From Candidatus Gastranaerophilales bacterium (lineage in GTDB: Bacteria; Cyanobacteriota; Vampirovibrionia; Gastranaerophilales; Gastranaerophilaceae): a DNA stretch of 64,000 bases. A program made the translations under genes and the position numbers. The stretch covers positions 21,159 through 85,158 of the forward strand of contig CALURL010000006.1 of NCBI GenBank assembly GCA_944323155.1. The letters are read 5' to 3'. The notes below the pieces were generated by a model. The model searched no databases. It saw only the letters and a program-made list of their open reading frames with translations, and was not told the DNA's origin. Shown in pieces: positions 1 to 49,467 of this stretch (the first letter of the stretch is position 1; each line of letters begins with the position of its first letter).

Positions 1-568
1 GCAAATGTACATTTCTTCTTGTAAATGGTTTCAATTTAGGATAACCGTCAAAGCCGCCAATAGCAACTGGAACAATATCAGCTTTTGCATTTTTTGCAAT
101 AACAATAAAACCTTTTTTAAGCTCACCTAACTTAGATCCATAAGGTCTTATACCACCTTGCGGGAAAACTCCCAAAGACCAGCTTGTAGATAATATATCA
201 CGAACTGTTTTAAAAGTCGCAATTTCGGGTTTATTTCTATCAACAGCAAAAGCGCCCAAACGTTTTACAAGCCATTCAAACTTATCACCTTTTTCAAAAA
301 GTTCTTTTTTTGCCATATAAGCAATTGGACGTCCGCAAGCCATAGTAACCATAGGAGGATCAAAATGAGAAACATGGTTTGCTGTATATATAAATTTTCC
401 ACTTTTAGCTTTAGTCGGCAAATTTTCTCTGCCAGTAATTGTATAATTGTAGAAAATTTTCATAAACGGAATTACAACAACATACAAAAAACACATATAA
501 AACATTGTTCTAAATATGTTATATTCTGAAGGATATCTTCTATTGTAATTTCTTTGTTTCTTAGTCAT
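1..568 (-). CDS. PlsC-type lysophospholipid acyltransferase, C-terminal end cut by window edge
   Basis: Not in ORF track because there is no stop in the window. My reverse translation from ATG 568..566 (GGAG about 6 nt upstream) gives MTKKQRNYNRRYPSEYNIF...TANHVSHFDPP...VFPQGG. These are the NHxxxxD and FPxG acyltransferase blocks. Paralog of the next gene. Confidence 0.75.
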   Translation of the reverse strand, partial: MTKKQRNYNRRYPSEYNIFRTMFYMCFLYVVVIPFMKIFYNYTITGRENLPTKAKSGKFIYTANHVSHFDPPMVTMACGRPIAYMAKKELFEKGDKFEWLVKRLGAFAVDRNKPEIATFKTVRDILSTSWSLGVFPQGGIRPYGSKLGELKKGFIVIAKNAKADIVPVAIGGFDGYPKLKPFTRRNVHL

Positions 569-570
569 TC

Positions 571-1257
571 TTAACTCCTAGTTTTTTCGCCATCCTTGGA
601 TACATCATTTGGAATATATTTAAATCCAGTAAGTTCTTGAATTGCAGCAATCCATTTTTCAACAACTTCATCAGGATTATCACTATATGGAATTGGTTTT
701 CCGATTTTAACTACAATTTTACCAGAAAAAGGTAAGTGTTTAGCCTCCTGAGTACCTGTAATTCCAATAGGCAAAACTGCGCATTTCGTAATTTTAGCAA
801 GTCCTGCAAAGCCTTTTGTAACGCCGGTAATAGTTCCAGGAACACCTCTTGTTCCTTGAGGGAAAATTCCGAACACCCATTTACTTTTTTTAATTTCAAG
901 AACAGTTTTAATGGTAGAAGGTCCTAAGCTTTCTCTATTAACAGCAAAAGTTCCCAGCCAATCAATCCACCACCTGATAAACGGAATATCAAACAACTCT
1001 TTTTTAGCCATAAAAGAGACCCTACGGGGTAAAATTGCAGCAATCATAGGTGGATCAAGGGTAGAAAGATGATTTGGACAAACAATATATTCATTATCCT
1101 TTGGAACATTTTCCAATCCTTCAACCTTAAGTCTATATACGACTTTCAAACGAATCATATAAAATATTTTACAAATAATAAGTTGGAATATTGTTCTCCA
1201 AATATTAAATTCAGAGGCATTTCTTTTTGTATAATTTTTGTCTTTATCCCAAAACAT
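571..1257 (-). CDS. 1-acyl-sn-glycerol-3-phosphate acyltransferase family protein (PlsC-like)
   Basis: 228-aa ORF with NHLSTLDPP (NHxxxxD) and FPQGTR acyltransferase motifs. Confidence 0.85.
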   Translation of the reverse strand: MFWDKDKNYTKRNASEFNIWRTIFQLIICKIFYMIRLKVVYRLKVEGLENVPKDNEYIVCPNHLSTLDPPMIAAILPRRVSFMAKKELFDIPFIRWWIDWLGTFAVNRESLGPSTIKTVLEIKKSKWVFGIFPQGTRGVPGTITGVTKGFAGLAKITKCAVLPIGITGTQEAKHLPFSGKIVVKIGKPIPYSDNPDEVVEKWIAAIQELTGFKYIPNDVSKDGEKTRS

Positions 1258-1390
1258 TTATAATAATCCTCTTAAAGAAATAGTATACTGTTTACTAAAA
1301 TTATACCTATAAGAAAGAAATATGACAAGTATTGAAATATAAAATAACAGCCTCTCTACCATCCTCTCATCCAAAACTAGTTGAATGGTG

Positions 1391-1442
1391 AAAGTTTGGT
1401 ATACCTGCAAAGCTGTAGGTTTTAGTTTTCCACCCCAACAAA
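1391..1442 (+). repeat. Degenerate REP-like hairpin unit (..CTGTAGGTTTTAGTTTTCCACCCCAACAA)
   Basis: Shares the AAAGTTT..GGT..CTGTAGGTT...CCCAACAA layout with units at 1536-1564, 1785-1837, 3895-3930, 53978-54033 and 56024-56064. Confidence 0.6.
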
Positions 1443-1483
1443 AAACATATCCTCTAGCCACATTGGGGAGAGAGTTAGAGAGA

Positions 1484-1564
1484 GGGGTGCTACGCACGTA
1501 GAAACTTGTGCCAATATTTGAGAGACTTAAAAAAATTGTAAGTTGGGGTTTCTACCCCAACAAG
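1484..1564 (+). repeat. Composite intergenic repeat, copy 1
   Basis: GGGGTGCTACGCACGTAG (CTACG/CGTAG palindrome), then ..CAATATTTGAGAGACTTAAA.., then hairpin TTGGGGTTTCTACCCCAACAAG. Aligns by eye with copies at 1681, 1741 and 3895 (inverted). Confidence 0.8.
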
Positions 1565-1680
1565 TAAACTTGTTCCCTCTCCTAGGGAGAGCGGATTGCG
1601 AGCAGAGGGCGAAACGGCGGCGCGCAGGCGACGGCGTTGCAGCCCCGTTTAACGCGAGCAACCAAGCAGGGATAGGGTGA
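1565..1680. other. GC-rich ~115-bp island embedded between repeat copies, function unknown
   Basis: CTCTCCTAGGGAGAG palindrome followed by GCGGATTGCGAGCAGAGGGCGAAACGGCGGCGCGCAGGCGACGGCGTTGCAGCCCCGTTTAACGCGAGC. Composition differs sharply from the surrounding AT-rich DNA. AAACGG..CCGTTT can pair. Confidence 0.4.
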
Positions 1681-1740
1681 GGGGTGCTACGCACGTAGGA
1701 ACCTGTATCAATATTCGAGAGACTTTAAAGTTTTTGGTCA
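1681..1740 (+). repeat. Composite intergenic repeat, copy 2 (lacks terminal hairpin)
   Basis: GGGGTGCTACGCACGTAGGAACCTGTATCAATATTCGAGAGACTTTAAAGTTTTTGGTCA, directly abutting copy 3. Confidence 0.8.
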
Positions 1741-1837
1741 GGGGTGCTACGCACGTAGGTAACTTTACCAATCTTCGAAAAACTTTAAAGTTTTTGGTGA
1801 AAATATAACTGTAGGTTGGGCATACCTGCCCAACAAG
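1741..1837 (+). repeat. Composite intergenic repeat, copy 3 (full length); left arm of inverted repeat around the giant pilin-like gene
   Basis: GGGGTGCTACGCACGTAGG...ACTTTAAAGTTTTTGGTGAAAATATAACTGTAGGTTGGGCATACCTGCCCAACAAG. The reverse complement of 3895-3991 aligns over the whole length at roughly 80 percent identity by eye. Confidence 0.85.
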
Positions 1838-1839
1838 AT

Positions 1840-1866
1840 AAAAAAAGAGCCCGATTTATCAGGCTC
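1840..1866 (-). terminator. Rho-independent terminator of the giant pilin-like gene
   Basis: Minus strand reads GAGCCTGATAAATCGGGCTC followed by TTTTTTT, 35 nt after the stop at 1902. Confidence 0.7.
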
Positions 1867-2639
1867 AGTAATGTTAACCAATTTAAATGTTTGTTTTGGA
1901 GTTACATTTTAATTGGTCGGATTGGTACAAGACGACAATCTGCATCTTGTACTTTACATTTGTCATCGATGGTCATGCCACCGCAGTATGCACTGGTTTG
2001 GATATAACCACTCTTACAAGCGGCTTCACGGAAACTTGTACTCTTTAATAACCATTTGACTACACGGGCTTGGCCGCTGTAATCGTCATACTGAAGACTT
2101 ACCTCCAAGTCACTCTTACTGTTGCCGCCGCGTTCACTACCGTCTTCCGGGAAACCTGGAACGACGGTACCAGATAAGGTTAAGTAGAACGGAAAAACAT
2201 CTTCATAAAGAATACTATCACCGGCGTTGCCGTTGACGTCAACATAAACAATATAACCGCCTTCGTCCATGGTGACACATTTACCGTCAGCCAAGAACAT
2301 TCCTGCTGGACAATAGCAGCCGCAATCAGGATAATCTGTCATATTACCGCCTGAGTCGACACATTGGCTTATGGCGTCTGCATTACAGGTTTTACGTCTA
2401 CATGTGTTTGCGCCGGTGCTTTCGTAGGGCTCTTCACATTTGCACAAGCAGCCTTCTAAGTATGTACTCATCGTGCCATGGCTGGAAACACAAGCATTGA
2501 CAACATCGGTCGCACAGGTTAACTCTACACACTTACTGCCGTCACTGGCATAACCTGCAGGACAGTTGGTACATTTACAATCTGGATATGAAGTCATAGT
2601 CCCGCCACTTGAAGTACAGGTACTTATCGCGCCTGAATC

Positions 2640-2960
2640 ACAAGTTTTCATTGTACAACTGCCATTAACTAAGTTATAAAGACTTGAACAGGAATTGCAA
2701 CGGCCGGTACATTTATCGCAATTAGTACAGCCTGCACTGCAGGATTTATTACAAGCTACACAAGAGGAGCCAGACAACTGGTAACCGCTCGAACAGCTAC
2801 TACAACGACCGGTACAACGGTCACAATTGCACAACCTGCACTACAGGAGGTATTGCATAGCTGGCAACTGCTGCCGACTAACTTATAACCACTAGAACAA
2901 GAACGGCACTGACCAGTACATTTATCACAGTCGCTGCAGCCACTGCCGCAACTGCCGTGC
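2640..2960 (-). repeat. Three tandem ~105-111-nt coding repeats (furin/VSP-like Cys-rich units)
   Basis: Peptide units GSCGSGCSDCDKCTGQCRSCSSGYKLVGSSCQLCNTSCSAGC / ANCDRCTGRCSSCSSGYQLSGSSCVACNKSCSAGC / TNCDKCTGRCNSCSSLYNLVNGSC, read across the frame breaks. Confidence 0.75.
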
Positions 2961-3775
2961 AGGGTTGGCATTCTTCACCTCTATGTGCAGCACCTAAACT
3001 AACTGCTTTGTAGCCACTCGGGCAAGAACATGAACAATATGGAAAACCGCCCAGAGGGTAGCCTCCTGGATTATTAAATGTGCCACCCGAATTTTGACAT
3101 CTATTTCGATTACCTACAGAACAGTTAACAAGAGCAAACGCAGGTGGCGTAAGATTATTCATAATACCTGTCAGAAAACCACTAAACCTTTGTAGAATAC
3201 TCGCGAACTTAAAGCCGGAGACATAACCTGTTTTCATATTGCCCTTCAACTGAGGTATTTCTACATAGTCATTTTTTACATTATAAAGCTTCATGCCGTT
3301 ACGAAAAACTATATCTGGTTGTACACCCGAAAAGTCTCCTGATGCAACAGCTTGAGATATGGCTGATTTGTTGTTGCCGCTACAATTTGAAGAGACTGTA
3401 TTCACAGACTCTTCGACGGCCTCACAGAAATCATTGCCATTGGTAGGCAAAGTTACTGAGATTGATACACAATCACAAACACTTTTATCGAATGCGTAAC
3501 CATCGGGACATTGTTTTTCTGTGCTACACGTGCCTTCTTTGTGCTCGGTGTCCTGTTTCTTAATTGAATATGAATTGCCGATTAAATTCGCAGAGACACT
3601 GTTTAAGGTGTCGTAGGCGGCAAAATATGTATAAGTGACAACTTTGTCTAACTTCGTGCGGGTGATTTTTATACAAACTCCGGCGACTACAGCTATAATC
3701 AACATGACGATGATTACCTCGGACAACGTAAATCCGAACGACCGCCGAAGTCCTTGGGAGACTAAGGAATTATCG

Positions 3776-3786
3776 CCCCCCCCCCC
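3776..3786 (-). repeat. G11 homopolymer (coding strand) at codon 10 of the giant pilin-like gene; in frame
   Basis: Counted 5+6 C on the plus strand. Coding strand is ATG+27 nt+G11 = ...LLS GGGG D. With G10 the frame would hit TAG (GCG ATA ATT CCT TAG). Confidence 0.9.
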
Positions 3787-3851
3787 GCTTAACAAGCGTA
3801 AGATTCTTTTCATCTTTTTTACCTCTCTATATTCTGTGTAACTCCAATTTT

Positions 3852-3880
3852 ATTATATTAGATTTTTTGAACTTATGCAA
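3852..3880 (-). promoter_or_regulatory. Sigma-70-type promoter TTGCAT-N17-TATAAT for the giant pilin-like gene
   Basis: Minus strand: TTGCAT (3880..3875), 17-nt spacer, TATAAT (3857..3852), ~39 nt upstream of ATG 3813, with AGAGAGG as RBS. Lies inside the inverted-repeat bracket. Confidence 0.55.
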
Positions 3881-3894
3881 CCCGTAAATTTTTA

Positions 3895-3991
3895 TTGTTG
3901 GGCAGGTATGCACAAACTACAGTTATATTCTTACCAAAACCTTTAAAGTCCCACGAATATTGACACAAGTCTCTACGTGCGTAGCACAGGG
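3895..3991 (-). repeat. Composite intergenic repeat, copy 4 (inverted); right arm of the bracket
   Basis: TTGTTGGGCAGGTATGCACAAACTACAGTTATATTCTTACCAAAACCTTTAAAGTCCCACGAATATTGACACAAGTCTCTACGTGCGTAGCACAGGG is the reverse complement of the unit at 1741-1837. Confidence 0.85.
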
Positions 3992-4079
3992 ATATGAGTT
4001 ACACAATATCAAATTTGATTGCATAATACAAGTTTTTTGTATAATATATTTATAAAAGATTATATTAAGGAGAGAACAG

Positions 4080-6353
4080 ATGCAAACAATGAAACATTCT
4101 GAAAATCAGCTGGAAAATGAATTATTTAAAAGTGTTTATGACAAAACTCCCGATTACATTAAAGAATTAAACCTTATGGATTTCTCCAACAAAGGAGAGT
4201 TCACATTTACATTAAAAAAAGAACATTTGTATCCGTATGACAAAAATTCAAATCCTGAAGGACTCAATTTAAAAGATTGGTTTGCAAATTACGCAAAAGA
4301 GGCAAAAGTTTCCACAGCAGGGATTAGAGGGCCTCAAAATATTTTATTTCCGCAAGATACAAGATTTCCGATAAATCTTGTAGGAATAGTTCTTGCGACT
4401 TTAGCAAAAGCTCTAGTGGCAAAAGAAAAATACCCGAATAAAGAAATTCTAAAAGTTGCAGGAAGAGAAGTTCGTTATAATTCTGCGCTGTTTCTTGATG
4501 CAATAGCAAGAATTCAAGCGGCAAACGGTATTAAAACTCTTGTACCTAAAGAAAGAAAAACTATTCCAATCTGGCTTGCATCATTTTTAGCGTTCAAACT
4601 TGATTTACTTGGCGGTGAATATATTACATCAAGTCACGGTATTTCTGTAAAAAATGCTACAAAAGATTTGAATTCTCAAGGCAGCCAGTATCTGCCAGAG
4701 GAATCTCTTGAATTTGTTAATAAAATTCAAGAAATTTTTGACATGACAGAAAAAAATGGTTCTTACGAGATTAAAATCGCAGCACAAGATAATCCGCTTA
4801 TAGATGAAAAAATTATGGATAAATTAAATGACGGCGTGGATTTATACGTTGAATACCTGAAATCCGGCGTTGCTCAAAAAATTAATCTTGATTTAATCAA
4901 GCAGATTAAAGACAAAATTGTTATTGAAAATGTCGGAGGCTCTGCATACAGAACGCTTAGCAGAGTGTTGAAAAAACTTGAAATTTCCGATAAATTTACA
5001 TGGTTTAACACAGAAGAAGATCCGTTTTTCCATTCAATAGGGAAGTATGACCATACACCGGCCGGAGAAAAAGCATTCTACGATTATTCTGTTGATGCGA
5101 CAGTTATTGCAAAGAAAAAAGACGGCGAAAAATTCTTCCCTGTTATTGAAACAATGAACTATCAAGAAAAATTAAAAAATATGCCTGTTGGAACAGCAGT
5201 TTTAATAACAGACCCTGACCATGACAGATTAACAATTACACAAACCGAATATGCATGTACAATTCCAGAACTCGAAAGAGCAGGAATTGATTATATTAAA
5301 ATCAATGATGACGTAATTCTAACAATTTTCACAGCTAATCAAGCTTTCCTAATGCTTATGGATTTCTGGGCTAAACAATTAAAGGCTCAAGGATTATGGG
5401 GAAATCATCCGCGATTTATGATTAAAACAACAGCCTCAGCTCTTTCTTGGGATGAATGGGCAAAAAAACAAGGGGTTAAAGTTGTTAATGTTCCTGTCGG
5501 CTTCAAAGAAATTGCTAACATCATGAAAAAAGTTGAGTTGAAATTGAAAAATTCCCCTGACAAGGAAGTTATCATTGAAGATGTATTCGGCAATGAAATT
5601 AACCTCGGCATAAATCCTAGATTACTTTTCGGTGGCGAAGAATCCGGCGGAATGATTATGGGTACAGAAGATCTCATTGAATCGCTTGCAGGAAGAAAAG
5701 CAATTGCGATGAGAGAAAAAAGCGCTACAGAAGCAATTATTGTTGCCTCTGCACTTATATCAAAGCTACAAAAAGAACAGGTTTCTTTATCTGAATATCT
5801 TCAATCAGTCTTTGATGAAAATGATATTATCGGACGCTTTGATACCCGTGTTGATATCGCTTACTACAACGAATCAGAGCCTGATATCAACAAACTTAAA
5901 CAAGCTAAAATTGAAGGGGAAAAGAAACGTACTAAGAACGATTTATTTTATCTTTCAATGGCAATGGGCGTAAAAGAAGGAATTATGACACTTGATGATG
6001 TTATAGAAATCCTTAATGACAGTTTCAAAAGTCTTATATTCGATCATCTTACAAACATAAAATTTGTCGGAGATGGAACATATTTGGAATTTACTGATAA
6101 ATACATTGAAATTCGTCCTTCAGGAACAGATGCCAAAACTAAAGCATATGGCGGCGGAAGCGACAAATCAATTATTGAGACATACGCCGGTGCTATGGGT
6201 AACTACTCCGGTGAAAGAACAGAGTTACATAAAAAATTTATCTCAGATGAATTTTACGAGCAAACTAAAGATAAAGCAATGGATTATTATCTGGAATTTG
6301 TCGATAAAGACGCAAATAATGAACCATTTACAATTCCAGAATACAAATTCTAA
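4080..6353 (+). CDS. Alpha-D-phosphohexomutase superfamily protein (divergent, long phosphoglucomutase/phosphomannomutase-like)
   Basis: 757 aa. TSSHG (active-site Ser loop, like TASHNP), GGEESGG (sugar-binding loop) and RPSGTDAKTK (RxSGTEP phosphate-binding loop). Confidence 0.6.
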   Translation: MQTMKHSENQLENELFKSVYDKTPDYIKELNLMDFSNKGEFTFTLKKEHLYPYDKNSNPEGLNLKDWFANYAKEAKVSTAGIRGPQNILFPQDTRFPINLVGIVLATLAKALVAKEKYPNKEILKVAGREVRYNSALFLDAIARIQAANGIKTLVPKERKTIPIWLASFLAFKLDLLGGEYITSSHGISVKNATKDLNSQGSQYLPEESLEFVNKIQEIFDMTEKNGSYEIKIAAQDNPLIDEKIMDKLNDGVDLYVEYLKSGVAQKINLDLIKQIKDKIVIENVGGSAYRTLSRVLKKLEISDKFTWFNTEEDPFFHSIGKYDHTPAGEKAFYDYSVDATVIAKKKDGEKFFPVIETMNYQEKLKNMPVGTAVLITDPDHDRLTITQTEYACTIPELERAGIDYIKINDDVILTIFTANQAFLMLMDFWAKQLKAQGLWGNHPRFMIKTTASALSWDEWAKKQGVKVVNVPVGFKEIANIMKKVELKLKNSPDKEVIIEDVFGNEINLGINPRLLFGGEESGGMIMGTEDLIESLAGRKAIAMREKSATEAIIVASALISKLQKEQVSLSEYLQSVFDENDIIGRFDTRVDIAYYNESEPDINKLKQAKIEGEKKRTKNDLFYLSMAMGVKEGIMTLDDVIEILNDSFKSLIFDHLTNIKFVGDGTYLEFTDKYIEIRPSGTDAKTKAYGGGSDKSIIETYAGAMGNYSGERTELHKKFISDEFYEQTKDKAMDYYLEFVDKDANNEPFTIPEYKF

Positions 6354-6361
6354 AATAAAAC

Positions 6362-6397
6362 AACCGCCTTGAAGAAACCTCAAGGCGGTTTAATTTT
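6362..6397. terminator. Bidirectional hairpin terminator between convergent genes
   Basis: AACCGCCTTGA-AGAAACC-TCAAGGCGGTT (11-bp stem), followed by TAATTTT and preceded by an A-rich run. Confidence 0.75.
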
Positions 6398-7159
6398 AAA
6401 ACCAAGGATAATCATCTTTTATCTGCCAGCCGTCATAGAATATCAAACCGGTACAGTAATTAGCATACTCTTTAGTAGGTTTTCCTGAGCAATAATCCAG
6501 AAGCTGAGATCTTTGTAACCCCAAACCTCCATATGGCTCTAATCCAGTTTTTTTGTATTGAAAAGTAAAGTATTTTGAGCCGCAACAAGCTTGTTGGGAA
6601 TTAACGTCCTTCTGGCAGCTATCAACATCTTTTGCGTAAGGATAAAAATACATATCAAAGACTGTTTTGGAATTGGTCGCAGCAAAACGAATTCCAAAAC
6701 CGCTTCCGTCAACAAGCTTAACCCAAACAGTATAATCATGCACCATTCTTTCAACAGAAAGAACATTCATATGCTTTCGTAAATAGGTATTGAACCACTC
6801 CTCAGTAGCTGATTCCTGAGTCAAATCCGGATCAGGCCAATTTTCAACTTCACCATATTCAACTTCTGCTAATTTTACAGCCTGTGAAAAAGTTGAATAG
6901 AATTTTTTTAACCTTGTCTCAGCAACACCTTTTTTGTGATTAGCAACCATAGAAGGAATAGTTAAGGCTGCGACAATGCCGATTATTCCTAAAGTAATTA
7001 AGACCTCTGCTAGAGTAAAGGCGGGTTTTATTTTAGATACCTTTGTTGAATTGCAAGAAATGCATTGTCTTTCAAAAAATTTTAAAGTTCCACAAACATT
7101 GGCGCAGGTATCTAGGCGCTTGCCCCCCCCCCAACTGCTCTTCTAAATCTATTTTTCAT
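6396..7159 (-). CDS. Prepilin-type N-terminal cleavage/methylation domain protein, phase-variable leader; currently out of frame at G10
   Basis: Track ORF 6396..6950 continues upstream in frame as KPA|FTLAEVLITLGIIGIVAALTIPS with no ATG/GTG/TTG. ATG at 7159 (AAGGAGG RBS) is 209 nt upstream (209 mod 3 = 2) and reads MKNRFRRAV+G10 then GCA AGC GCC TAG. One extra G fuses it in frame with no stops (checked codon by codon). C-terminus is GWQIKDDYPWF. Confidence 0.8.
7123..7132 (-). repeat. G10 homopolymer at codon 10 of pilin-like gene (off frame)
   Basis: 8+2 C counted on the plus strand. Confidence 0.9.
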
Positions 7160-8872: not shown

Positions 8873-9732
8873 CTAATACGGACTTTCATAATCATCAAAA
8901 GTATATTTTCTATTACAAAAGCTTTGATTACCCTTTACGCATTTTAAATAATCAAGATTTTCTTCCTGTAACACCCACGCAGAACAGCCACTGCCATTCC
9001 ACCAGCCATCTGCTCCAGTATCAGATGCAGGATTACACTGCTTGTAAGTAGAATGAGCTCCTGAACCGCCGCGGGGAATAATCCTGTTTCGTCCAACCTG
9101 AAATGTAAATGTGTCTACTCCCCAGCGATTTGGCCCTCTATTACCGTTTATATCGACATCAATATTAAAACAGTAATTATTACCTGAAAAAATGCCGCAC
9201 ATATTATCTTTTGCAGAACTAGCAGAGATTTGGTGGCCAAAACCGTAGACTATACCGTCTGCTGAAATTAAAGATGCACGGCTTCCGATTTCATCTACAT
9301 TATTATTAAGCAAATCTTTTCTCGCATCTTTTTGAAAACACTTGCCGCTATTGTTTTCATCAGGTGTACACACGCGCACATTTTTGATATATTTACTAAA
9401 CAAAATTGCGACATCATCCCAGGAATCATTTTCTAATGAAGGTAAAGACCAGTCTGATGGTTCGCCATAATCGTTCAGCATCATTGTATAGGCATTCGAT
9501 ATAGTTGAATATGCTTTTTTCAAACGAACAACTGTTTCTTTTTCCCTATGATTGGCAATTAAATTAGGCAATGTCAAAGCTGCGACAATGCCAATTATCC
9601 CTAAAGTAATTAAGACCTCTGCAAGGGTAAAGGCGGATTTTCTCGGTTTGCCAGACTCAATATAAGAGGTAAAATGGCCCTCTACGCGGCGCTTGCCCCC
9701 CCCCCGACAAGCTTTTTAAACAATCTTTTCAT
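8873..9732 (-). CDS. Prepilin-type protein, phase-variable leader; out of frame at G10; start overlaps murG stop
   Basis: ATG 9732 overlaps the murG TGA (ATGA). Reads MKRLFKKLV+G10 then GCA AGC GCC GCG TAG. G11 would give MKRLFKKLVGGGGKRRVEGHFTSYIESGKPRKSA|FTLAEVLITLGIIGIVAALTLPNLIANH..., joining track ORF 8873..9577 (155 nt offset, mod 3 = 2). Contains IDVDINGNRGPNRWGVDTFTF. Confidence 0.8.
9696..9705 (-). repeat. G10 homopolymer at codon 10 of pilin-like gene (off frame)
   Basis: 5+5 C counted on the plus strand. Confidence 0.9.
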
Positions 9733-21595: not shown

Positions 21596-22449
21596 TTAAT
21601 AATTCATTTCCCAGTTGTCATTTAGAATTTTTCCGAAACATCCATCGCCAAGAGGTGATTTTTGACAAAATGATTCAAATCTTTTTTCACGGTTTTCAGA
21701 GATACAATTAGAGGAATTGTCACTACATGTGTTAATTTCTTTATACTCATCAATTGAACCATCTTGATAAAATCTAGCGATAAACATATCTCTTCCACCG
21801 ATATTAGGGCCATTAACTCCGTTAACGTCAATAGTAATCAACCCGCCGTAAAAATTTTCGCTTGTTTCATATACAGCAATAGGAGATACACAAATAGAAG
21901 CGCCACTTGCTATAACAAAACATTTTACACCATCTGAAGTCTCAACATTCGTACTAAAAGTCTTAGTCCCATCAATAGATCTGTATTCATCTGCAAAACA
22001 AGGTCTATATTTGGTACCACAATCATTTACTATTTTAAAATACTGAGTCATAAAATCAGTTGTTTTATCCGAAGATGACAAACCTGCTTCTACTAAGTTT
22101 ATTGCGTTATGATCAGTTTGATATCTTACAAAAGCCTGACTAAATTCACTATAAACTTTATGTAATTGAGTTACATAAGTTTTTCTCTGATGATTTTGCA
22201 TTAAAGTTGGAACAGTCATGGCAGAAACTACACCAATAATTCCTAAAGTTACCAGAACTTCCGCTAGAGTAAATGCACATTTCTTTTTAAAAACTCTTGT
22301 TGGGCTGAAGATAGTATAGACCTTCTCCCCCAAATTGACGATTTGGTATAGATCTAAATTGTTTTTTGAGCAAACATTATCAGCTGCATCACCGTGTGCA
22401 ACTAAGCCTTTGCCCCCCCCCCAACTGTTTCTCTAAATAAATTTTGCAT
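21596..22449 (-). CDS. Prepilin-type protein, phase-variable leader; out of frame at G10
   Basis: ATG 22449 (AAGGAGG RBS, 12 nt after the radical-SAM stop) reads MQNLFRETV+G10 then GCA AAG GCT TAG. G11 would give a 59-aa leader ending ..KKKCA|FTLAEVLVTLGIIGVVSAMTVPTL, joining ORF 21596..22333 (116 nt offset, mod 3 = 2). Contains DVNGVNGPNIGGRDMF and the C-terminus GCFGKILNDNWEMNY. Confidence 0.8.
22413..22422 (-). repeat. G10 homopolymer at codon 10 of pilin-like gene (off frame)
   Basis: 8+2 C counted on the plus strand. Confidence 0.9.
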
Positions 22450-29333: not shown

Positions 29334-29390
29334 ATGTTATTCAAAAATAATTCACGCGTTTGCCCCCCCCCCGACAAGCTAATAAAATAA
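29334..29390 (+). other. Inverted copy of the pilin leader/homopolymer module; reads as an 18-codon mini-ORF on the plus strand
   Basis: AGGAGG 29321-29326, then ATG 29334 ... CGCGTTTG-C10-GACAAGCT. This is the reverse complement of AGCTTGTC-G10-CAAGCGC seen at 9690-9715. Plus-strand ORF is MLFKNNSRVCPPPDKLIK*. Flanked by direct repeats ATAAAATAAA(A)GG at 29311 and 29382. Confidence 0.6.
29363..29372 (+). repeat. C10 homopolymer (tract inverted relative to the adjacent pilin-like gene)
   Basis: 8+2 C counted on the plus strand. Confidence 0.9.
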
Positions 29391-39413: not shown

Positions 39414-40123
39414 CTAATAATTCATTTCCCAGTTGTCATTTAATATCTTTCCAAAACAACCTGTCCAATAGCTAGGACTCAGGCAATAATCATTATATGC
39501 TTTTTCGCGCTCATCACGTGTTCCCGGGGCAGAAACAACATGATAATCATCAACCATTCCATTATTAAATAAAGATATGATAAAAACATCTCTACCTGCG
39601 ATATTAGGCCCTTTTGCGCCATTAATATCGACATCAAGCGTACATAGTCTGTCACCAGCACCTGTTGTATAGCCATAACCTATTGATACACCACTTGTCA
39701 GAGTTATAAAGGCTGGTCTTGATGAATAAATATTTGTTCCTGATAAGTTACGATATTCAGAATTAGGAGCAAAACACGGTACAGACTCATCCTTACAATC
39801 ACTTGCGATATTAAAATATGTCTTAAAAAAACTATCTAACGCAGCTTGAGAATTCAATCCTGCTTCCCGCATATTTACAGCATTATGATCAGTAATATAC
39901 CTTTGAGCAGCTTGTGACAATTCAGTATAAAATTTATGCAATTGCGTAACATACACTTTACGCTGATGACTTTGCATTAAAGTTGGAACGGTCATCGCAG
40001 AAACCACCCCAATAATACCCAAAGTAACCAGAACCTCTGCTAACGTAAAGCCTCTACGGCGATTGGAAAAGGAGACTAAGCCTGTGCCCCCCCCCCGTGA
40101 AGTGCTCTAATTAATTCTTTCAT
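39414..40123 (-). CDS. Prepilin-type protein, phase-variable leader; out of frame at G10
   Basis: ATG 40123 (AAGGAGAG RBS) reads MKELIRALH+G10 then GCA CAG GCT TAG. G11 would give MKELIRALHGGGGTGLVSFSNRRRG|FTLAEVLVTLGIIGVVSAMTVPTL, joining ORF 39414..40022 (101 nt offset, mod 3 = 2). Contains LDVDINGAKGPNIAGRDVF and the C-terminus GCFGKILNDNWEMNY. Confidence 0.82.
40087..40096 (-). repeat. G10 homopolymer at codon 10 of pilin-like gene (off frame)
   Basis: 4+6 C counted on the plus strand. Confidence 0.9.
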
Positions 40124-48531: not shown

Positions 48532-49467
48532 CTAATATTTAAGGGAATTTAAAATTTTTGTATTATGAAGATACTTATTATAATATCTTTTACGGCTTTT
48601 TTGAGAACCAACTTTTGAATATATGAAAAATTTTATATTATCAAACTTCAGTTTAAACATATATTTATAGATATTATATGAATTTTGCATCATAAAATCT
48701 TCATAGAAATCGGATAATCTAGCATATTTCCACCAAATATGCCTCATACTATGCATACAATCAAAACGATTCGGGTTTGCACCGACGAAATGAACAATTA
48801 TAGGATTTTCTATTTTGTCATTAATATTAAGCCAGTATTGTTCACAATAATTGTATTCTCGACCAAGATTTATTTTTCGTTCATCAATCATAATATTTAA
48901 AGTATCTTGATCAGCACATTTTATATTTTTAACATTTTTTCTAACGTAATCGACTGTTTTTTCATAAAAATGTTCTTCACGCCATAATTTTGCATTAATT
49001 AAAATAACGCCAGCATTAAAATATAGTAAGCTTTTCAGGCCTATGCCCCCCCCCCCGGGAAGCGCCACTACTGCAGCATAATTGCTGCCAAGGTCAATAT
49101 TAAACAAATTTTTAAGAGAGCTAAGAACCATTGTATCGGAATCTAAATATAGAATCTTATCAATATCATTACACAATTCTGCAATCTTTATTCTAAACCA
49201 TGTAGCCATTGTAACCCAATTTACAAGAGGAAATCCCTTAAATTCGTCGCGTTCTACTTTTACAAAACGGATATTACAATGTCTGATATTTTTTACAGAG
49301 TTTATTTTTTCTATACTAGCGTCAGACAAGCCCGAATGGATTATAACAAACTCAATTTCATCACTACTGTCAGCATTTTTCAAAACAGAAATCATTGATA
49401 CAGATGTTATACCGGCATAATTCTCATCAGGAGCATATGCAATAGTAATCTTTTCTTTTTTCAACAT
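48532..49467 (-). CDS. Glycosyltransferase family 8 protein carrying an internal in-frame G11 tract
   Basis: 311 aa. IAYAPDENYA.., YLDSDTMVL (DxD), FNAGVILINAKLWRE are GT8 blocks. The tract encodes LPGGGGIGL near codon 137-141. Confidence 0.85.
   Translation of the reverse strand: MLKKEKITIAYAPDENYAGITSVSMISVLKNADSSDEIEFVIIHSGLSDASIEKINSVKNIRHCNIRFVKVERDEFKGFPLVNWVTMATWFRIKIAELCNDIDKILYLDSDTMVLSSLKNLFNIDLGSNYAAVVALPGGGGIGLKSLLYFNAGVILINAKLWREEHFYEKTVDYVRKNVKNIKCADQDTLNIMIDERKINLGREYNYCEQYWLNINDKIENPIIVHFVGANPNRFDCMHSMRHIWWKYARLSDFYEDFMMQNSYNIYKYMFKLKFDNIKFFIYSKVGSQKSRKRYYNKYLHNTKILNSLKY
49046..49056 (-). repeat. G11 homopolymer inside the GT8 gene (in frame)
   Basis: 5+6 C counted on the plus strand, followed by GGG. 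Coding strand is CCC-G11-CAT. Confidence 0.9.

Follow-up and report, generated by a model that had tools for sequence, protein, structure and literature searches.

A probable poly-G-gated modular pilin with a hypervariable cysteine-rich insert, interrupted by two one-base deletions in a Gastranaerophilales genome

A stretch of 64,000 nt from a Candidatus Gastranaerophilales genome (contig CALURL010000006.1; this whole stretch is referred to as the window) carries on its minus strand a giant gene for a cysteine-rich, pilin-like protein, the reading frame of which is broken twice. The window is chromosomal, with dnaA, mur genes and other housekeeping genes present. Between 3813 and 1902, three overlapping open reading frames (ORFs) follow one another in three different frames, with a one-base deficit at each step: ORF A (3813..2878, 311 aa), ORF B (2971..2756, 71 aa) and ORF C (2834..1902, 310 aa). 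When the three are joined with one base added at 2958|2957 and one at 2831|2830, they encode a prepilin of 637 aa that contains 58 cysteines (9.1%). An earlier note, made from the sequence alone, had described the product as a cysteine-rich protein of about 637 codons with a prepilin leader and a hydrophobic helix, and our analysis agrees on all these points.

The ATG of the gene (3813-3811) lies 8 nt downstream of a ribosome-binding site (RBS), GAGAGG, read from the sequence at 3822..3827 of the minus strand, to which all coordinates of the gene refer. The same layout is found in the other four pilin-like genes with a G tract in the window. The leader peptide comprises 26 codons (MKRILRLLSGGGGDNSLVSQGLRRSFG, 3736..3813) and its last residue is the Gly of the prepilin cleavage site. 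The full signal sequence reads MKRILRLLSGGGGDNSLVSQGLRRSFG|FTLSEVIIVMLIIAVV and contains the prepilin motif RSFG|FTLSE, with Gly at the end of the leader and Glu at position +5. We scanned the whole repaired protein and four sub-regions against Pfam and NCBIfam at E<=10. Only N_methyl (PF07963; 24.6 bits, cut-off 21.2) and TIGR02532 (18.3 bits, cut-off 16.3) score above their cut-offs, both over residues 23-46. The mature protein starts with FTLSE and continues in a long hydrophobic to amphipathic helix, alpha-1 (residues 27-84, 3562..3735), delimited with AlphaFold2 (AF2) models.

The helix is followed by a head that is split by an insert. The conserved first half of the head (residues 85-195, 3229..3561), which includes DIV(F/L)RNGMKLYNVKND, is defined by allele identity, the ratio of non-synonymous to synonymous substitution rates (dN/dS) and conservation in the family. 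The insert starts with a hypervariable segment and a first Cys module (residues 196-284/285, 2960..3228), recognized by allele identity and dN/dS, and continues with CxxC repeat unit 1 (GSCGSGCSDCDKCTGQCRSCSSGYKLVGSSCQLCNTSCSAGC, 2831..2957), which is translated in frame B only, and units 2 and 3 (2640..2830), translated in frame C. It ends with three further modules of the pattern C..S.G.M..Y(P)DC.C.C (residues 393-514, 2274..2639), visible both in the translation and in the AF2 models. The conserved second half of the head (residues 515-637, 1905..2273; GYIVYVDVNG..GDSILYEDVFPF...CRLVPIRPIKM) is supported by allele identity, the family profile and the scaffold model, and is closed by the stop codon at 1904-1902.

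The CxxC array had been described as three tandem units. Two complete 35-aa units of the form CS[DN]CD[KR]CTG.C.SCSSGY.L.GSSC..CN.SCSAG are present, and the third is diverged. The identity from unit to unit is 73% over 41 aa (self-tblastn, E 6e-11). At the DNA level, the 105-nt units are ~70% identical and are not detected by Tandem Repeats Finder. All four of the SGG/YPDC modules noted earlier, with the pattern C..S.G.M..Y..C.C.C..(Y/M), are found, one N-terminal to the CxxC units and three C-terminal to them.

A profile search of 1.84 billion cluster representatives shows that the protein belongs to a family of 591 clusters, 182 of them at E<=1e-30, with lengths of 130-1165 aa. Conservation covers an N-terminal segment (positions 5-280 of the profile) and a C-terminal one of ~128 aa (428-555), while the middle varies or is absent. 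No other module of the family is as conserved as the C-terminal segment, which forms the second half of the head. The minimal scaffold is represented by P0121, a member of 264 aa. Its AF2 model (predicted local distance difference test, pLDDT, 91; predicted template modelling score, pTM, 0.85) consists of a 50-residue N-terminal helix and one compact head built from both conserved parts; across the AF2 models the helix spans 47-50 residues before the compact head. In the model of an insert-bearing, 597-aa member (pLDDT 72), the insert appears as a chain of small beta-hairpins and short helices, with a helix and a hairpin in each SGG/YPDC module. According to these models, the giant protein is a pilin-like scaffold of ~260 aa with an insert of ~320 aa in a loop of the head, between '...EIPQL' and 'GYIVYVDVNG...'. 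A Foldseek search of the P0121 scaffold model against the PDB, solved pilins included, gave no match with an E value below 1.7. The family profile matched only pilin N-terminal helices among PDB sequences.

The related loci that we found in species-representative genomes all belong to metagenome-assembled genomes (MAGs) of Candidatus Gastranaerophilales or Melainabacteria. Because the gene body is intact in 76 of the 78 complete related loci, the wider family is predicted to be functional and constrained. The locus occupied by the gene in the window is often sacrificed.

Nine codons 3' of the ATG, inside the leader coding region, a run of 11 G residues (G11, 3776..3786) acts as a frame gate, as judged from a test of the possible frames and from the orthologous tracts. 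A tract of G11 (or G8) reads through into the prepilin; G10, G12 and G13 lead to a stop after 14-17 codons (16 for G10). The earlier note gave the anatomy of the gene correctly but overlooked this tract (3786-3776), which gates the whole gene. At the orthologous site, the related contigs L001, L002 and L016 contain G10, with TAG five codons on. G11 is found in L015, the protein P0030 is in the ON frame (no contig encoding this allele is on record), and L018 reads GGGGTGGGGG. Because the tract is usually OFF, the starts assigned to these genes by gene callers are an internal Met (MLIIAVV...) or spurious TTG codons further upstream, and annotated starts should be treated with caution.

The gate is not confined to the giant gene. 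The window contains seven G10 or G11 tracts, and the next-longest G/C run is only 6 nt. Four smaller pilin-like genes on the minus strand share the arrangement of RBS, ATG, 9 codons and G tract, and all four tracts are G10 (OFF): 7123-7132, 9696-9705, 22413-22422 and 40087-40096. Their products match N_methyl, and one also matches DUF6613. In these genes G10 stops translation after 15-16 codons, and G11 would give full prepilins of 236-286 aa, so that G11 is the ON register for all five pilin-like genes of the window. In L002 the states are the reverse of those in the window: the orthologue of the 9696 tract has G11 (ON) and the giant pilin has G10. A tract census over the window and ~430 kb of related loci gave one G8, three G9, 51 G10, nine G11 and one G12. 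Orthologous sites differ in length between samples (L036 G11 and L038 G10; L079 G10 and L080 G9; L052 G10, L106 G9 and L097 G12), which indicates slipped-strand phase variation, as far as can be read from sequence comparison. Since tract length varies between strains, the giant gene would behave as a contingency locus that varies in phase by slipped-strand mutation. The leader sequence was not found in an exact-pattern scan of JGI metagenomes.

The small paralogues are related to the giant protein in a limited way. They share the N_methyl signal, the poly-G-gated leader and a short motif, D[IV]NG..G......D.F. The paralogue at 6396-6950 scores 50.5 bits for DUF6613 (PF20318), but neither the giant protein nor its C-terminal part matches this family. 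The earlier note had assigned to all of them a common 'VDVNG...F domain'; what they have in common is the 16-residue motif, and profile-profile alignment with hhalign is limited to the N-terminal helix.

The frame steps, previously placed near 2955 and 2830, were located exactly by DNA alignment to L001, a contig with a 91%-identical intact orthologue. Deletion 1 (2957..2958) removes one C from a Thr codon (ACC GGC to AC GGC) and shifts reading from frame A to frame B, with the frame A stop then at 2878. Deletion 2 (2830..2831) removes one A from a Ser codon (TGT AGC to TGT GC) and shifts frame B to frame C, with the frame B stop then at 2756. The deletions bracket repeat unit 1 exactly, which is read in frame B (2957..2831). 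At deletion 1 the repaired translation equals that of P0001 and P0030 (CQPCTGSC), and in the alignment the orthologues run uninterrupted across both sites, reading CQPCTGSCGSGC and SAGCSNCDRC. The intact orthologues found among 5.8 billion proteins measure 546-649 aa and come without exception from metagenome assemblies of the human gut. P0001 (597 aa), P0026, P0035 and the full-length, ON-type P0030 (630 aa) are each in a single frame across both sites, which settles the comparison with orthologues proposed in the earlier note in favour of intact frames. From the ATG of the window allele, the only reachable product is a truncated prepilin of 311 aa with 27 out-of-frame residues at its C-terminus, lacking the conserved C-terminal half of the head.

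The broken frame had been left between a recent pseudogene, an assembly artefact and recoding. If the two deficits were sequencing or assembly errors in a repetitive region, the real gene would be intact. The lesions do sit within the tandem-repeat array, and the cluster at 90% identity holds many ORF fragments, some of them possibly from contig ends. However, L015, a 23-kb contig from a different ENA assembly that is 99.956% identical to window 1..6813, differs from it by 2 single-nucleotide polymorphisms and 1 indel elsewhere in these 6.8 kb and yet contains the same two deletions and the same G11. The exact 311-aa product of ORF A is recorded on two contigs (98 kb and 23 kb), and all indels between the window and the syntenic contig L002 (96.5% identity over 5.6 kb) are intergenic. 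Collapse of the repeats would drop whole 105-nt units, not single bases; moreover, the longest exact repeat between CxxC units is 11 nt, so k-mer assemblers would not be confused. We reject an assembly artefact as very improbable and take both deletions to be genuine mutations that are frequent, if not fixed, in one lineage. Production of the full-length protein through two programmed -1 events at 2958 and 2831, by ribosomal frameshifting or transcriptional slippage, would profit from the common direction of the shifts, which is also the one needed at the G10 tracts of the paralogues, and from frame C staying open up to the conserved C-terminus. Neither site (CCCTGCA|CGGC and GGTTGT|GCAA) contains a homopolymer or a slippery X XXY YYZ heptamer, though, and both close and distant orthologues have the extra base and one continuous frame. 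The positions of the shifts are not conserved, other broken alleles being broken elsewhere, and we give recoding at these sites next to no credence. It is also improbable that selection in this lineage has favoured the truncated 311-aa product as a shortened but functional pilin or membrane protein. In both strains with the deletions the G tract is ON (G11), and the 27-residue tail (TAVAAVAAATVINVLVSAVLVLVVIS) is strongly hydrophobic, but Val/Leu-rich sequence arises trivially from out-of-frame Cys-rich (TGY) codons. The part that is lost is more strongly conserved than any other module of the family and, in the scaffold model, forms a single domain together with the N-terminal half. The second deletion, downstream of the first, has no effect on the product, which suggests relaxed constraint.

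Slippage at the G tracts themselves is a stronger competitor, directed not at the deletions but at the phase variation. Here, G10 would be a conserved programmed site: slippage of RNA polymerase there, or a -1 slip of the ribosome on G GGG GGG, would let each paralogue produce full-length prepilin at a set fraction. G10 occurs in 51 of the 65 tracts, across species with only ~40% protein identity. The productive frame always corresponds to one added G, equivalent to a -1 shift, and in the G10 frame a stop follows within 2-5 codons. A homopolymer of 10 nt spans the full RNA-DNA hybrid, which in general permits transcriptional slippage. Against a programmed site, the tract is polymorphic at orthologous sites (G9, G10, G11, G12), and G11 alleles are called as full-length genes. 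In addition, a G-to-T interruption of the tract in L018 goes together with decay of the gene body, as expected if the state of the tract is under selection. We regard a programmed G10 site as rather unlikely to be the explanation, but slippage at G10 and phase switching at the DNA level are not mutually exclusive.

Among the explanations for the broken frame, the pseudogene is favoured by the intact orthologues, the identical lesions in L015 and the lack of a recoding signal. As the frame breaks inside the CxxC array and only the truncated 311-aa product can be reached, the window allele is best read as a recent, lineage-specific pseudogene, and the full-length protein is predicted not to be made in this strain. 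Taken together, the locus is probably a poly-G-gated, phase-variable modular pilin gene with a hypervariable cysteine-rich insert, broken here by two deletions.

The repeats of the insert had been likened to furin-like and Giardia variant-specific surface protein (VSP) repeats. In the unit alignment, a CxxC-based unit of ~35 aa with an aromatic GY motif is indeed present. The profile searches proposed earlier gave a match above cut-off for N_methyl, but for none of Furin-like, VSP and GCC2_GCC3. Furin-like (PF00757) and GCC2_GCC3 (PF07699) had no match at E<=10 in the whole repaired protein or its sub-regions, VSP (PF03302) reached E 6.5 and 6 bits against a cut-off of 31.4, and cEGF reached E 0.005, below its cut-off. 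A profile of the repeat unit found nothing relevant among PDB sequences. A Foldseek search of the insert-bearing 597-aa model against the PDB gave no significant match and nothing at E<=1e-3; the best fold matches, none of them significant, are the EGF domain of NELL2 (E 0.014), R-spondin Fu1-Fu2 (E 0.1-0.3, probability up to 0.75) and tumour necrosis factor receptor.

The one significant match outside the family is P0021 (database-wide E 1.6e-6), a protein of 1008 aa with 51 CxxC motifs encoded on a metagenome contig of 32% GC (L026:207-5080). Its units are 39-46% identical to the pilin units, and its own best Pfam match is VSP, with 22.8 bits, below the cut-off of 31.4. The cysteine-rich repeats of P0021 are followed by a long non-repetitive region, and the second ORF of the contig ends in a hydrophobic, transmembrane-like stretch. 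This layout looks eukaryote-like, an impression taken from the arrangement and not from a domain search of either region. It is possible that P0021 represents the source of the bacterial repeat, or is convergent with it. Furin-like, VSP and R-spondin Fu1-Fu2 units are like those of the giant pilin in being built of ~35 aa on CxxC pairs with a central GY.L motif, and Giardia VSPs, like the giant pilin, are variable cysteine-rich surface proteins of a gut anaerobe. Unlike members of Furin-like, VSP and GCC2_GCC3, the pilin units have no significant profile match and no match among PDB sequences. The resemblance is real at the level of the pattern and probably at that of the fold class, but it is weak, and homology is indistinguishable from convergence in low-complexity, Cys/Ser-rich sequence.

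The variability of the protein follows its modular organization. Compared with alleles of its own species or of close relatives, the window protein is identical to 95-98% in the conserved N-terminal part of the head, 18-68% in residues 196-284, 30-98% in the CxxC region, 80-98% in the modules (residues 397-514) and 96-99% in the conserved C-terminal part of the head. The number of CxxC units ranges from 0 to 4 among orthologues. In the conserved parts dN/dS is 0.01-0.10 (0.02-0.04 for the first half of the head), compared with 0.35-0.47 in the variable segment. At the conserved N-terminal part of the head (3705-3229), the proportion of synonymous differences (pS) to L001, L002 and L016 is 0.52-0.66, near saturation, although protein identity is 95-98%. 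L001 matches the window at 99-100% identity in the flanks and is nearly identical to it in the CxxC region (pS 0.13; proportion of non-synonymous differences, pN, 0). High synonymous divergence of the N-terminal part amid near-identical flanks and a near-identical CxxC region implies, at the sequence level, that the gene is a mosaic of segments of different ancestry in near-identical genomes. This pattern points to allelic replacement or gene conversion, and the divergence of the N-terminal part suggests that ancient alleles or paralogue-derived cassettes have been swapped into near-identical genomes. A second full-length paralogue lies at another locus, beside GGDEF and rotamase genes, on contig L016, which comes from the same sample and has the same coverage as the PGM-linked copy on L002. 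It is a plausible donor. In the window, tblastn with the repaired protein revealed no second copy or silent cassette.

Loss of the gene has recurred. The 90%-identity cluster contains the intact alleles P0001, P0026, P0030 and P0035 beside the double-frameshift allele of the window. The L018 allele, found on six contigs, has an interrupted, locked-OFF tract and a different internal frameshift. In a deletion allele (L023, L025), window 3989..2447 is replaced by ~340 bp of repeat elements and a remnant of 146 aa is left. On contig L024 (1-2610), the upstream intergenic region of the PGM side is joined to a 146-aa pilin remnant, after which come an ORF of 134 aa and a holin-like gene that belong downstream of the second giant-pilin locus. 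Either the two paralogous loci have recombined or the contig is an assembly chimera. In another Gastranaerophilales MAG, a distant orthologue (L010:3968-5725) keeps one frame throughout and has a G10 leader tract and two in-frame stops; it may be a pseudogene or a case of unusual read-through.

Downstream of the stop codon, a hairpin resembling an intrinsic terminator (GAGCCTGATAAATCGGGCTC) is followed by T7 (1840..1866, minus strand). The gene is flanked by all four copies in the window of a repeat element of 60-100 nt with the core GTGCTACGCACGTAG. Three copies lie downstream (1471-1532, 1668-1729 and 1728-1842) and one upstream (3889..3987), which is inverted relative to the downstream copies and absent from L002. 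The copies at 1728-1842 and 3889-3987 form a 99-nt inverted pair with 81% complementarity, and similar elements are found at the junction of the deletion allele L023. We rejected an invertible segment between the 99-nt inverted repeats, as the gene has one orientation in all assemblies and the upstream copy is absent in L002. The flanking elements are treated as mobile elements similar to repetitive extragenic palindromes (REP) or miniature inverted-repeat transposable elements (MITE).

The two remaining G tracts of the window lie outside the pilin-like genes described above. A family 8 glycosyltransferase (GT8) gene (Glyco_transf_8, 127 bits; ORF 48532-49467, minus strand) has an in-frame G11 at about codon 137 (49046-49056) and is likely, by analogy to the lgt genes of Neisseria, a second class of phase-variable gene. 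An orphan G10 at 29363-29372 has flanks like those of the pilin leader cassette (..AGCTTGTC-G10-CAAACGCG..), with no ATG or downstream ORF, and is probably the remnant of a lost pilin-like gene.

We propose the following route from tract to surface. With the tract in register, the prepilin would be processed at G|FTLSE, and the alpha-1 helix would insert the protein into a type IV filament, where its most likely place is the tip or that of a minor subunit. The filament would then expose the cysteine-rich array as an adhesin or variable surface antigen, and switching, a diversified insert and gene loss may all be favoured by host immunity or phages. Filament display, the adhesin or antigen role and host or phage pressure as the driver are all suggested by analogy to known systems.

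Several observations weigh against this picture. The 64-kb window contains no pilus assembly genes and no solved pilin head matches the scaffold model, so the case for incorporation into a filament is made by the N-terminal signature only. The adhesin or antigen function is drawn from analogy only. From assemblies only, we infer the fixation of the two deletions and the switching of tracts within populations. Frame C has acquired no further lesions over its 310 open codons, which is expected if the inactivation is recent, yet is also compatible with residual use. G10 (OFF) is by far the commonest state (~78% of tracts), which could mean a conserved recoding site or assembler bias at long G runs.

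The earlier note regarded a pilin with a large insert as unusual. Modular pilins are widespread (PMC8179133), and it is the CxxC/SGG-YPDC module and its insertion point in the pilin head that are previously undescribed. In the modular type IV pilins PilB and PilC of Streptococcus sanguinis, CofB of enterotoxigenic Escherichia coli (ETEC) and GspK of the type II secretion system (T2SS), a class III signal and alpha-1 module likewise carries a bulky extra module presumed to be displayed on the filament, and in GspK the extra domain lies within the head rather than being appended to it, as in the giant pilin (PMC8179133). The giant pilin differs in that its module is a CxxC and SGG/YPDC array without a Pfam signature that occupies a loop of the head and is hypervariable, in sequence as well as in copy number, in that its head has no match among solved structures, and in its host, an uncultured Melainabacteria lineage.

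For the gate, the closest precedent is Neisseria pilC, which has a G tract in the signal-peptide region (PMC5354566). There, too, a leader G tract sets the frame of a pilus-associated surface protein and varies in length between strains. The lgt glycosyltransferase genes of Neisseria are poly-G contingency loci (PMC2192423), and their counterpart in the window is the GT8 gene with its internal G11. In contrast to the Neisseria poly-G loci, the tract is here in the prepilin genes themselves, one cassette (RBS, ATG, 9-10 codons, G10/11) is found in many paralogues, and G10 (OFF) dominates. Like flagellin and Neisseria PilE, the giant pilin has conserved ends, under strong purifying selection, and a highly divergent, mosaic centre, which in its case is found within otherwise near-identical genomes. 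Unlike PilE, the giant pilin has no silent donor cassettes in the window, but the at least two full-length paralogous loci per genome (L002, L016) may be donors. Our literature search on pilins, phase variation or homopolymeric tracts in Melainabacteria or Gastranaerophilales, and on DUF6613, found nothing relevant.

It is possible, and we advance this tentatively, that the genome holds a dispersed repertoire of pilin-like genes with the same leader cassette, most of them one step from ON, in which the giant pilins carry in their head loop a hypervariable, VSP-like CxxC array shuffled among alleles and paralogous loci, so that antigenic variation of the Giardia VSP type would take place on type IV filaments. 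In a sharper form of this idea, programmed slippage at the conserved G10 may determine in what stoichiometry many minor pilins are made. If true, this would be a surface-variation system not described for this phylum, in Gastranaerophilales of the human gut.

Gastranaerophilales, relatives of cyanobacteria that do not photosynthesize and have not been cultured, are common in the human gut, and to our knowledge almost nothing has been established about their surface biology. Most known examples of poly-G gating come from Neisseria, Campylobacter and Haemophilus. As a broken gene, the window allele is ordinary; it is the poly-G-gated, hypervariable, cysteine-rich modular pilins of gut Melainabacteria that are worth following up. 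Our analysis suggests that Gastranaerophilales carry large modular pilins whose presumed displayed module is a cysteine-rich repeat array of eukaryote-like pattern, and that this module and whole alleles are exchanged and diversified far faster than the surrounding genome. The giant gene and many smaller pilin-like genes are poly-G-gated, and the giant gene is repeatedly lost. Tract lengths and allele types are markers that can be read in existing metagenomes. Together, variability, gating and loss suggest that a filament-borne surface antigen is under strong pressure from the host or from phages.

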